DNA of 64,000 bases from the IMG/VR virus record IMGVR_UViG_2897352509_000011; one strand, written 5' to 3'. The number at the start of each line of letters is the position of its first letter. Position 1 is the stretch's first letter. This document shows positions 9,001 through 12,000 of this stretch, piece after piece. The position numbers were made by a program. Source of the stretch: a virus. Lineage: Duplodnaviria > Heunggongvirae > Uroviricota > Caudoviricetes.

Positions 9001-12000
9001 ACTCCCTATTCTCTTGCATATAATACATGTTGCAACTTACATCTCAGCGCTATGAAAAAACACCACCTCTCTCTTTATGAAATTCTGGATTTACCAAGCG
9101 CTAATTTATCATTTCAATCTACCTTTAAGCATTGCATTTATCTCCCTACGAGGTCATACTTTAGGAAGTTAAATATGAATGATAATATACCTACAGCGCG
9201 AAATCACAAACAATCGACTTGTATTACAGAAAAAACATGCCTATCTTTTTAAACTTCACAGCAGGCAGTATCTTACCTGAGAATGAGCTAGCATCTTTAC
9301 GTTATATTGTGCAGCAAAATCAAAATGATACTGTAATCATAAAAGAACGTTATAAAATGGATATCCGTTATATCGAATCAGTCAATGGTTTTACAGTAAA
9401 TCCTGTATGCAGTAATCATTTCTCCATATTTATGGCGAGACAAAACACTATTGCTCGCAACCTGGAACAGCAGATCAACAACGGACGAAGTTTTGCACAA
9501 ATATCTCAGGATTTTATGCTTCAATTATCTTCAAATATAGGATGGAAAAAAGGGGCCGAAAACGCCCTTAAAAATAAAATCCATTCTCATTCATTTGTTG
9601 TAAATCCTGATGAATTCTCTTGCGACACACAATTTCTTAAGTGCCCAATAACATTATGCGTTCCAGAAAAAGGGGTTTTTGTCAAGAACGCACTGAACTC
9701 CAACATATGCACTCTTTATGATAAGTCTGCGTTCATGAATCTCACAAGAGAACATCTACCCCACCCTCTCAGCAGGGAAAAGATAGTAAAAGAAATGATT
9801 ATTGAAAGGAATATGTGTTATTTTGACACCATAAGTCAGCATTTCATAATTATGGATACAGACCAACAGAAACAGCATTGTAAATAAAATGTAATAATTA
9901 CATACTATTAGTGATTCTCATGCATCGTAAGCGGCTCGCCAGAACCGTATTGATATTTACTGAGCGCTCAGATCAACTTTCCATGGCAACAGATCGCGTA
10001 CCGGTTTGCCGGCCAGTCCTGGATATGCTCCCGCCGACAATATTAATGGCCAGGAAATGTTTAAAACAATGATTCTGTTTCCTAACCATCAAGTGTATAT
10101 GCTGGCTCAATTACTCAATATCTATGGGTTGAGTTCTACCCAAAGTGGCTCTGTAGTCGCTTCTTCTTACAGTATGTTCAGGTGTTGCAGGCACAGTTGT
10201 GGAGCGTAGATGCGTTGTTGGTTTACCATGCTCTGGTACATAAAAAACGCCAGTGCCATGGTAACCTGATATAGAAACGTTAATTCCGCGACGTTCAAAC
10301 TCGGCATAGACGTGTTCTGCTAAAGACCTCTTTTGACCAAATAATGCCCTGGCCAACCAGCCGTTATTCATATTTGCGGATTTTTCTATTTCATCAGGAG
10401 AGAAGTCTTTGTTTTTTATTATGTTGGCTGAGTTACAGGATGTTAATCTGATATCATCTATTTCATGAAGATTATGCTGAACAATGCGGTCGACAATATC
10501 TGACGGTGATAAAAATTCATCTCCGCACTTAAGAAGAGGTAGACCAGCAGAACCATGCCCAGACAGATAAATTTTGTTGTATTTTCCTAGTGTTAAATCA
10601 TCTGGCAGGATGGTTTTCATCTCTGTCGCTGTAATACTTATAGCTGCAGCAGCAACAACATCGCTATTACTTGATTGTAGATGGCTTTTATTTGCTCCAG
10701 GATATGTAAACTCCATTTTCCTTTTATCAAAATCTTGTTTTGTAGCATCATTCAGGAATAATAAATCATACGGTTTTTTCCCCGTTGTGACTCTTGAAAC
10801 ATTTTGGCCAAGAATATTAAGAGTATAGTCATTAACGGATTTCATTCCTAAAAAAACAAGTAATCCTTCTTTCTCTTGCGCTTTTTCGATTGTTCTCCCT
10901 GCTAAAGTTATTGGGATGGATTGAGATTGTTTTGTCGGAACTGATACGCTGGCGCTAATAGGTAGTAGGGTTCTTATGCAAAACATACAACCTCTTTCTT
11001 AATTTTCGAACCTGTTTAGGATTCTGTGTAAATTCAAAATAAACCTGTCTGAACATTCCTAACAAACATCCACCGGACATGACAACAAAAACCGGAGCCG
11101 GACTCCGGTTTTTGTGAAGCTGTCGGCTATTTCATTCCGCCAATATTTTCCCACGTCCCGTCAGCACGCAGAATTTGCAGCGGTCTTACCACGCACTGTA
11201 TCTGCTTTTTATCCGCATCCAGTATCACCACCTGCGTGATTACCCTGTCCTGCTCCGGAATAATACCATTCTCATCGGACTCCAGGATGTCTGCCGGCCC
11301 CAGTCGCAGTTGTGCTGTAAGCGACTGCACGTGTTCACGGCCATCATGCTTTCCGCAACCACACAGACGCTGCATAAGTTTTTTTAGTATATTCATGTCA
11401 TTCTCCTGTTCTGCCTGTATCACTGCCCACTTCATTCAGCCCCTTAACATCCTGCCACGGCCCGTCACCAAACCTGACCTGCAAATGCCGAAACAGCCCC
11501 TGAACCTGTGTGGTATCTTTGGGGTCAAGAAAGGTCAGTCCGGTGATGAGCGCACCATCTGTATCCGGGAACCAGCCATTGCTGTTTGTCTCAATAATGT
11601 TTCCCGGCCCCAGACGGAACCGTATTTGCGTCTCCCCCGGGTCGCCCTTCGGCCCCTGAGGTCCGGTTGCCCCCACCGGGCCAGCCGCACCTGTTTCTCC
11701 TTTCGGTCCCTGTGGGCCTGCCGGGCCTGCCGCACCGGTATCTCCCTTTGGACCCTGTGGACCTGCATTTCCCGTCAGACCGGTCTCTCCCCGCTCTCCC
11801 CTGTCACCTTTCGGCCCCTGCGGGCCTGCCGGACCAGCATCACCTGCCGGTCCCCGTTCGCCGGTTGCCCCTGCCGGGCCGGTGTCTCCACGCTCTCCTT
11901 TATCTCCCTTCGGCCCCTGAGGACCCGCGGGCCCCGGTTCCCCCTTTGGCCCGGGAGGCCCCACCACGGTGGGGATTCGGTTTACGGCTTCTTCCGCCGC

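Follow-up and report, generated by a model that had tools for sequence, protein, structure and literature searches.

The small open reading frame (ORF) downstream of the side tail fibre gene stf in the virus record IMGVR_UViG_2897352509_000011 (Caudoviricetes) is almost certainly a true gene under selection, a paralogue that belongs to the fibre module. The stretch analysed, hereafter the window, comprises 64,000 nucleotides (nt), and the small ORF lies at positions 11127-11396 on its minus strand, where it encodes a stand-alone copy of the Phage_fiber_C domain (PfC, PF06820) of the fibre. An earlier note on this DNA had described the ORF as a duplicate of the fibre tip and had offered three explanations for it, namely a diverged spare receptor-binding tip, an assembly chaperone derived from the tip, and a recombination relic. 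Our results argue against the first and the third of these, and we tentatively favour a non-structural accessory or assembly factor encoded in the position usually held by the chaperone Tfa.

The small ORF as such was known before, being both annotated and noted in print. This region of the window is 100% identical to the corresponding locus of Escherichia coli O157:H7 str. SS17, where PGAP names the product 'phage tail fiber C-terminal domain-containing protein' (WP_001023455.1). Mondal et al. (2016; PMC5155283), who deleted the unknown genes of the Shiga toxin (Stx) 2 phage Sp5 one at a time, described the Sp5 gene ORF68 as a non-essential, 89-amino-acid (aa) stand-alone fibre C-terminus domain, found no frameshift signal fusing it to the fibre, and suggested that it might be an 'intragenomic reservoir' for fibre variation. 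The protein of Sp5 (VT2-Sakai) is 93% identical to that of the window. The record of lambda h434 imm21 labels the small ORF 'tail fiber assembly chaperone', apparently by position alone. What is added here concerns selection, co-occurrence, age across tail types, evidence against a cassette, trace peptides in virions and a Mu-like predicted fold.

Homology and selection

As the earlier note had stated, the small ORF begins one base past the end of stf: the stf stop TGA occupies positions 11400-11398, a single C stands at 11397, and the ATG of the small ORF is at 11396-11394. BLASTP aligned residues 29-88 of the small protein with residues 366-427 of Stf (24 of 62 identical, 39%; 63% positives; E 4e-13 for this single comparison). 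In addition, both proteins match PF06820, whose gathering score is 25 bits, over the full 64-position model: the small ORF with 122.8 bits (E 7e-36, model positions 1-64) and Stf with 119.5 bits (E 8e-35). The likeness between the two is far beyond chance. The claim that the ORF aligns with the end of Stf therefore holds for the C-terminal domain but not for the very last residues, since 12 further residues follow the aligned part in Stf. Stf itself has the layout PfN-coiled coil-collagen-PfC, and its architecture and length are those of EPclA of Ghosh et al. 2012 (PMC3368898).

Searches of the family databases point the same way. The small ORF matches PHROG 576 over 89 of 89 positions (E 1e-59), and its only matches in PHROGs are two 'tail fiber protein' families and a marginal one to a family of unknown function; NCBIfam gave no match. 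It is a separate protein of 89 aa with its own Shine-Dalgarno sequence and ATG, not the C-terminus of a fibre, while the neighbouring Stf does carry PfC C-terminally. The earlier note had named identification as a conventional Tfa, unrelated to Stf, as an outcome that would speak against it. Membership in the Tfa family (lambda Tfa, Mu U, P2 G; Caudo_TAP) was rejected, because the only Pfam match is PF06820 and neither PHROGs nor NCBIfam returns a Tfa; a search of Mu U and U' with the PfC profile (hmmsearch) was likewise not significant. The L-C-G-C motif near the N-terminus was considered as a lipoprotein or secretion signal and was rejected on inspection, since the hydrophobic stretch is too short, position -4 is occupied by an Arg, and some Salmonella orthologues have Gly instead of the Cys.

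The junction between stf and the small ORF reads AGGAGAA-TGA-C-ATG, so that the Shine-Dalgarno sequence is spaced from the start as AGGAG-N6-ATG, and the junction AGGAGAATGAC-ATG is common to 80 of 87 copies from related loci. This layout has the anatomy of translational coupling. An alternative upstream ATG at 11435 would give a protein of 102 aa; the conserved Shine-Dalgarno sequence and ATG, together with the N-terminus of the Salmonella orthologue, support the 89-aa start as the probable one.

Selection was estimated from pairwise Nei-Gojobori ratios of non-synonymous to synonymous substitution rates (dN/dS) among 57 alleles, which are closely related and recombining, so that the figures are rough while their direction is clear. 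The ratio is 0.12 for the whole small ORF, equal to that of the fibre PfN (0.12). It falls to 0.07 in the PfC part of the small ORF and rises to 0.32 in the N-terminal 28 residues, and the fibre's own PfC gives 0.23-0.28. Variable sites in the domain of the small ORF are distributed over the three codon positions as 6/7/17. All of the full-length copies sampled (87 of 87) are intact.

Distribution and age of the gene pair

The family of the small ORF is narrow. Named matches come from E. coli, Escherichia albertii and Citrobacter rodentium, with a diverged clade in Salmonella enterica, and an exhaustive profile search of 1.84 billion representative proteins yielded just 78 matches, mostly fragments. 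The small ORF was found at 6384 places in 697 of 5426 complete E. coli genomes, with a median of 10 copies per genome, and the Stf-type PfC at 6147 places in 696 of the same 5426. Among phage records, 296 contain the small ORF and 296 the Stf-type PfC (at least 80% identity in each case), each implying the other, and the two sets have an identical breakdown by organism name. In nearly all of 84 related loci, where the upstream sequence sufficed, the fibre PfC ends five bases before the ATG of the small ORF, the exceptions being loci with an insertion between the two. The arrangement of a fibre PfC followed by a small PfC, which the earlier note had proposed to look for in related prophages, thus recurs throughout these loci and phage records. 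Beyond the stop of the small ORF, conservation among 297 phage records spans only the first 50-67 base pairs (bp), which hold the terminator, and then gives way to divergence. The mobile conserved unit is the PfC-encoding 3' end of the fibre gene together with the small gene and the terminator.

A 565-aa protein (P0145), encoded on a 6.6-kilobase (kb) Logan metagenome contig, contains four tandem repeats followed by collagen Gly-X-Y, and the second halves of the repeats resemble the C-terminal half of the small-ORF PfC (TVVVLDAD...GILRVRRADGTWKEIPA). The internal tandem modules of another fibre thus also include PfC-like units.

The pair stands behind fibres of different kinds. It follows EPclA fibres in long-tailed lambdoid phages (434-derived, 2B8), the EPclB lateral fibre in short-tailed Stx phages (VT2-Sakai), and, in Salmonella enterica, a 212-aa fibre with neither PfN nor collagen. 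The Salmonella cluster includes sheath-initiator and baseplate-wedge genes and is thus of a contractile-tail type. There the small ORF has 79 aa, overlaps the end of the fibre gene (ATGA), is preceded by the Shine-Dalgarno sequence AGGAGG and has a similar hairpin behind it. Identity between E. coli and Salmonella over 58 core columns is 62% for the small ORFs and 36% for the fibre PfCs, and a comparison of small ORF with fibre PfC gives 28-38%. The occurrence of the pair across tail types and these identities indicate that the duplication is old and predates the spread of the module, and that the free copy has evolved more slowly.

In Salmonella (loci L085-L088, about 6360-12240), the PfC module is directly followed by type III secretion system effector genes (NleG-like, SopA), as in E. 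coli. The fibre-tip module and its terminator mark the insertion point of effector cargo in both genera.

Expression and possible roles of the small protein

The small protein is made, and it is at most a trace component of the virion. In the supplementary proteome of sucrose-gradient-purified phi24B virions (bioRxiv 10.64898/2026.04.10.717836), the peptides ADGTWENIGGMK and VITQVVILDADKK were recorded with 3 spectra each; they correspond to residues 78-89 and 52-64 of the small ORF, respectively, and both are identical in the window. After subtraction of SVVVSGTLK, a peptide discussed below, about 6 peptides and about 11 spectra are left for the small ORF against 2559 spectra for the fibre, which after normalisation for length amounts to about 0.03 per fibre chain (11/89 versus 2559/645). 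The main text of that 2026 preprint does not mention the small ORF, and it regards the function of the lateral fibre as open. The trace presence in virions fits a non-structural helper.

Structure prediction with AlphaFold2 was made for the monomer, while the domain is trimeric in the fibre. With 6 sequences the prediction was poor (pLDDT, predicted local distance difference test, 58). With ten sequences, the Salmonella orthologues having been added, the best model reached a pLDDT of 76, and 83-92 over most of the PfC part; in it a helix at the N-terminus (residues 3-11) leads through a disordered linker to six strands. Foldseek against the PDB gave one credible match to this model, the Mu fibre-chaperone complex 5yvq (probability 0.99; all others at or below 0.12). 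Overall, the best structural matches are the Mu tail fibre entries 8ju3 and 5yvq, the sole clear neighbour by two methods, and the top matches of a BFVD fold search are phage tail fibre proteins. Motifs like those of the small ORF (RLG, VITG, RPVQ, NGTWYN) are found at the extreme C-termini of Mu S and S'. The sequence link between PfC and the Mu S tip is not significant (hhalign E 0.02; hmmsearch likewise), and PDB sequence searches with the small ORF or its profile returned no match. The resemblance of PfC to a Mu-type fibre tip in these models is a lead rather than a result.

Any model of the small protein must fit several facts: it is made with the fibre, always inherited with the PfC tip, strongly conserved and nearly absent from virions, and in addition it is dispensable on K-12 and EPclA trimerises in vitro in its absence. 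In the reading that we favour, the small protein would be co-produced with the fibre late in infection and would fold into a small beta-rich knob like the fibre-borne PfC, probably as a trimer. It would then act inside the cell as a non-structural helper for PfC-tipped fibres, filling the genomic and functional niche of Tfa (lambda Tfa, Mu U). It might hold or register the C-terminal ends of the fibre, where folding starts, or prevent aggregation, and it would largely be left behind and not built into the virion. The benefit would be quantitative or dependent on conditions rather than essential. Lambda Stf needs Tfa, and work on the Mu fibre-Tfa complex (PDB 5yvq) by North and colleagues (Nat Microbiol, 2019) reportedly supports the general rule that a fibre has to begin folding at its C-terminus. 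The assembly-factor model is also in accordance with two properties of the domain, namely that PfC alone was not expressed unless fused to thioredoxin and that rEPclB made alone aggregated strongly (PMC3368898).

Several points weigh against this reading. In sequence the small ORF resembles none of the Tfa families, and PF06820 is its one Pfam match. In-frame ORF68 deletion mutants of Sp5 still form plaques on, and lysogenise, K-12 MG1655, unlike the fibre gene ORF67, which is essential (PMC5155283), and recombinant EPclA gives stable trimers in E. coli without the small protein (PMC3368898). Conservation is higher in the small paralogue than in the fibre PfC, which is unlike simple co-evolution of partners and hints at an additional conserved partner. 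Only one of the five AlphaFold2 models is confident, the other four having a pLDDT of 52-61. The tip-derived assembly chaperone of the earlier note thus remains the most plausible class of explanation, although it is weakened by the dispensability of the gene in Sp5 and by the unaided trimerisation of EPclA.

A more specific proposal, possible but rather unlikely, is that the protein represents a new kind of trans-acting helper, in which a copy of the fibre's trimerisation knob replaces Tfa and transiently co-assembles with or caps the C-termini of nascent fibres, so as to set the register of the chains or to keep them from aggregating, or else that it is a tip mimic directed toward a conserved host or virion ligand. 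In that case, the higher conservation relative to the fibre tip would reflect this second, conserved partner.

The free PfC could instead be a virion-associated distal accessory, which docks on the fibre tip like Mu U or some T-even gp38 adhesins and alters or extends receptor specificity on natural hosts. The detection of at least two peptides (an inferred 6 or so, with 11 spectra) in gradient-purified phi24B virions is in its favour, as is its joint inheritance with the PfC tip, which holds for all phage records and for the different tail types; K-12 has no O-antigen, so that a role in host range would have been invisible in the Sp5 assays, and the phi24B authors consider the function of the lateral fibre open. 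However, about 0.03 copies per fibre chain is far below one trimer per fibre, the protein is absent from the main text of the phi24B preprint, the Sp5 orthologue is non-essential (PMC5155283), and conservation above that of the fibre tip runs counter to the usual pattern of adhesins selected for host range. We consider this role unlikely.

Lower still in probability is a soluble tip mimic or decoy, a free knob that, after release at lysis or within the cell, would occupy the fibre ligand on debris, vesicles, capsids and sibling cells, so that the fibres of the progeny are not trapped or clumped. The small protein has no PfN tail-attachment domain and would thus be free, it is made late together with the fibre, and it is mostly missing from virions; such a fitness effect would escape plaque and lysogeny tests, and 933W virions clump tail to tail while rEPclB aggregates (PMC3368898). 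On the other hand, an identity of 28-38% to the tip, which does not track the divergence of the tip, makes the same binding specificity unlikely; moreover, a signal peptide is missing, given that the hydrophobic stretch is too short and that Gly takes the place of the Cys in some Salmonella orthologues.

The spare tip of the earlier note, which corresponds to the reservoir of Mondal et al. (2016), would be raw material that recombination swaps onto the fibre. The domain of the tip does recur in diverged form just downstream and in the same orientation, and genomes of enterohaemorrhagic E. coli (EHEC), with a median of 10 copies, offer many recombination partners. A second copy of fibre C-terminal coding sequence likewise lies beside the fibre gene in the Mu G segment (S/S'), the P1 C segment and the diversity-generating retroelement of BPP-1 Mtd. 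Unlike these systems, the copy in the window is an independent gene with its own start. An invertible cassette of the Mu G or P1 C type was rejected, because the fibre tip and the small ORF share their orientation and neither an annotated invertase nor flanking inverted repeats were seen within 6 kb. A diversity-generating retroelement was rejected as well, because the two copies are 55% identical in DNA, where about 90% with differences at adenines would be expected, and no reverse transcriptase is annotated within 6 kb. The longest word that the two copies share is 10 nt. Furthermore, no fibre with a tip of the small-ORF type was found among the best 120 matches in 5.8 billion 90% clusters, all of which are of 131 aa or less, and every long protein retrieved by the exhaustive profile search has the Stf-type domain. 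For a silent cassette there would be no need of a conserved Shine-Dalgarno sequence, ATG and N-terminal helix, or of codon-level purifying selection stronger than that on the fibre tip, and the two copies have stayed apart since a time before the modules of E. coli and Salmonella split. The spare tip is thus unsupported, and we regard it as improbable.

One database protein bears on such exchange. In P0121, a protein of 92 aa that came from the representative search, residues 1-40 of the small ORF run directly into the C-terminal half of a Stf-type PfC, about 10 residues being lost at the join. This chimera would count in favour of a spare tip; being a single sequence, it could also be an illegitimate deletion or an assembly artefact.

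Extension of the fibre C-terminus by programmed frameshifting or stop bypass, giving some fibres two tandem PfC domains, is very improbable. In its favour, E. coli (TGA-C-ATG) and Salmonella (overlapping ATGA) alike have the small ORF in the +1 frame relative to the fibre gene, an AGGAG resembling a Shine-Dalgarno sequence stands at the stop, the stop context is UGA-C, and the phi24B authors searched a database that held hypothetical fibre-gp59 fusions. In that search the entry 'Fusion_6159_FS1' had one 'unique' peptide with 88 spectra. We rejected it as a real fusion, because the peptide, SVVVSGTLK, is the fibre's own N-terminus after removal of Met and appears unique only because a stop-to-stop ORF entry cannot yield it; the entry is a database artefact. 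No junction peptides were recorded for the fusion models searched, the +1-at-stop peptide TGEDMNILK being outside that database, and no peptides from the frame upstream of the small-ORF ATG were found in the part of the phi24B proteome file that was examined, whereas the normal C-terminal peptides of the fibre are abundant. In the window, the frame of the small ORF is open for only 13 codons upstream of its ATG, with a stop 14 codons upstream, and the 42-nt open overlap contains no slippery heptamer. Re-pairing from GAA to AAU would be expected to be poor, and Mondal et al. found no signal either (PMC5155283).

The remaining suggestion of the earlier note, a recombination relic without function, left from the 3' end of an older fibre gene with an ORF kept by chance, agrees with the mosaic nature of lambdoid tail-fibre regions and with the partial copies that phage 2B8 and several IMG/VR loci have about 950 bp downstream. 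It is least probable of all, however, and is refuted by dN/dS values that point to strong purifying selection (0.12, and 0.07 in the domain), the intactness of every full-length copy with conserved Shine-Dalgarno sequence and ATG, the retention of an orthologue beside a different fibre in Salmonella, the detection of the protein by mass spectrometry, and the frameshifts that true relics carry.

These partial copies represent a third occurrence of the domain. In phage 2B8 (locus L004, 5954-6100), a segment corresponding to residues 37-85 of the small ORF, 75-78% identical, lies about 950 bp downstream, and similar copies are present in L005, L009, L012, L031, L037, L047, L055 and L056. They are broken by frameshifts and lie inside the effector cargo region, and are thus decayed relics. 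This suggests that the cargo loci grew through repeated recombination at the end of the fibre module.

The collagen-like fibres sit on Stx-converting and effector-carrying prophages of EHEC, typically with about ten copies per genome, and their ligand is listed as an open question by the 2026 phi24B structure paper. The small gene accompanies every PfC-tipped fibre sampled and is conserved more strongly than the tip. If the small protein is a tip-derived assembly factor or mimic, it would be another answer, alongside Tfa, to the problem of how a fibre begins to fold at its C-terminus, and would bear on the spread of Stx phages between strains.

The locus in the window and comparison with known systems

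The locus is located at the cargo end of a lambdoid prophage, with J, lom, stf and the small ORF all on the minus strand (Table 1). The stf ORF extends to a GTG at 12717 (11398-12717), while the start assigned by PGAP is the ATG at 12711. Residues 3-95 of Stf match the PDB chains 9e7m and 9mgh, both titled 'Tail fiber protein' (E 2e-51). For the low-complexity region, the matching region of EPclA has been found experimentally to be a trimeric coiled coil (PMC3368898). The variable linker in the N-terminal extension of the small ORF is missing from the Salmonella orthologues in the alignment.

Table 1. Features of the fibre module and its neighbourhood in the window
Feature	Positions	Strand	Description	Basis
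J	13443-16964	-	upstream of lom	
lom	12776-13375	-	between J and stf	
stf	11398-12711	-	collagen-like side tail fibre, 437 aa from ATG	ORF list; PF08400, PF01391, PF06820; PGAP WP_000268958.1 in SS17
PfN domain of Stf	12313-12711	-	aa 1-133, tail-attachment end	PF08400, 230.6 bits
Low-complexity region of Stf	11962-12312	-	Ala/Ser/Glu-rich (PCoil coiled coil of Ghosh et al.)	read from sequence
Collagen repeat of Stf	11629-11961	-	Gly-X-Y, aa 251-361, 111 residues	pattern match on translation; PF01391; direct-repeat family D1
PfC domain of Stf	11434-11625	-	same residues as trimeric PfC construct of PMC3368898	PF06820, 119.5 bits
Shine-Dalgarno sequence of small ORF	11403-11407	-	AGGAG, within last stf codons	sequence
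Small ORF	11127-11396	-	89 aa plus stop (stop 11127-11129), stand-alone PfC protein	WP_001023455.1; PHROG 576; orthologue of Sp5 ORF68
N-terminal extension of small ORF	11313-11396	-	aa 1-28; predicted amphipathic helix (aa 3-11), L-x-G-C/G-x-K motif, variable linker	AlphaFold2; alignment; dN/dS 0.32
PfC domain of small ORF	11130-11312	-	aa 29-89	PF06820, 122.8 bits; dN/dS 0.07; AlphaFold2 pLDDT 83-92 over most of part
Intrinsic terminator hairpin	11085-11115	-	ACAAAAACCGGAG-TCC-GGCTCCGGTTTTTGT	RNA fold -28.4 kcal/mol, z -4.3
291-aa ORF	10111-10986	-	between module terminator and nleG7	PGAP hypothetical protein WP_000458686.1
nleG7	9219-9887	+	past 291-aa ORF, opposite strand to stf	

The late operon ends at the terminator hairpin behind the small ORF, and this hairpin also sets the 3' boundary of the module. 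Directly after the small ORF, PGAP annotates a 67-bp 'tail assembly protein' pseudogene (about 11060-11126, minus strand; 7675-7741 in locus L001). As a gene it looks spurious, since it overlaps the hairpin, and the same 50-67 bp recur in 297 phage records, none of which annotates a Tfa there. The 291-aa ORF that follows has no match in Pfam or NCBIfam, and from its position in an exchangeable effector locus it is a candidate cargo or effector gene. Beyond nleG7 lie the chromosomal genes dacD and sbmC.

Upstream, terminator-like hairpins with T runs are present on the minus strand between lom and stf (12728-12749) and between J and lom (13405-13424). With lom flanked by terminators, expression of stf and the small ORF would depend on late antitermination. 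Two long ORFs run antisense to stf, 11236-12021 (plus strand, 261 aa) and 11667-12488 (plus strand, 273 aa); they are not genes but a side effect of the GC-rich repeats, both the collagen ones and the Ala/Ser-rich ones. In the EPclB fibre gene of VT2-Sakai, a run of seven T (GGTTTTTTTCAG; about 4905-4911 in locus L003) lies within the PfC-coding part, and the run is interrupted in the window (GGGCTGTTTCGG). Database proteins such as P0156 have the C-terminal end expected from a one-base slip at the seven-T run.

Among known genes, the closest to the small ORF are ORF68 of Sp5/VT2-Sakai (next to ECs1228), the phi24B ORF 39891-40295 ('gp59'), WP_001023455.1 and PHROG 576, all of the same family with 92-100% identity. 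The Sp5 and phi24B genes share with it the length of 89 aa, the PF06820 domain and the position directly after a collagen-like fibre gene, and nothing substantive differs, except that they follow the EPclB lateral fibre of a short-tailed phage and the copy in the window follows an EPclA-type side fibre of a long tail.

The PfC of EPclA (residues 363-426, the same as those of the Stf PfC) acts as a knob that trimerises on its own and nucleates the collagen helix anew (PMC3368898). The small ORF is homologous to the EHEC EPclA and EPclB domains (39% identity, and a match over the full length of the profile) and has the same predicted beta-rich fold. Unlike them, it has no shaft, carries its own 28-aa helix and linker, lacks the C-terminal tail of about 12 aa, and evolves more slowly. 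Trimerisation and collagen nucleation are experimental findings for the fibre-borne EPclA domain (PMC3368898); the small protein would probably be a trimer as well. With the C-terminal region of the Mu tail fibre S (5yvq, 8ju3), the likeness is one of fold in the monomer model.

From the Tfa proteins (lambda Tfa, Mu U/U', P2 G; Caudo_TAP) the small ORF differs in being a paralogue of the fibre tip with no sequence relation to Tfa, in being dispensable where tested (PMC5155283), and in accompanying a fibre that folds without it (PMC3368898). Like Tfa, it is the last gene of the late operon, stands right after the fibre gene and travels with the tip; the closest structural match of the accompanying tip is the Mu fibre, which is served by Tfa, and the trace presence of the small protein in virions is compatible with a helper.

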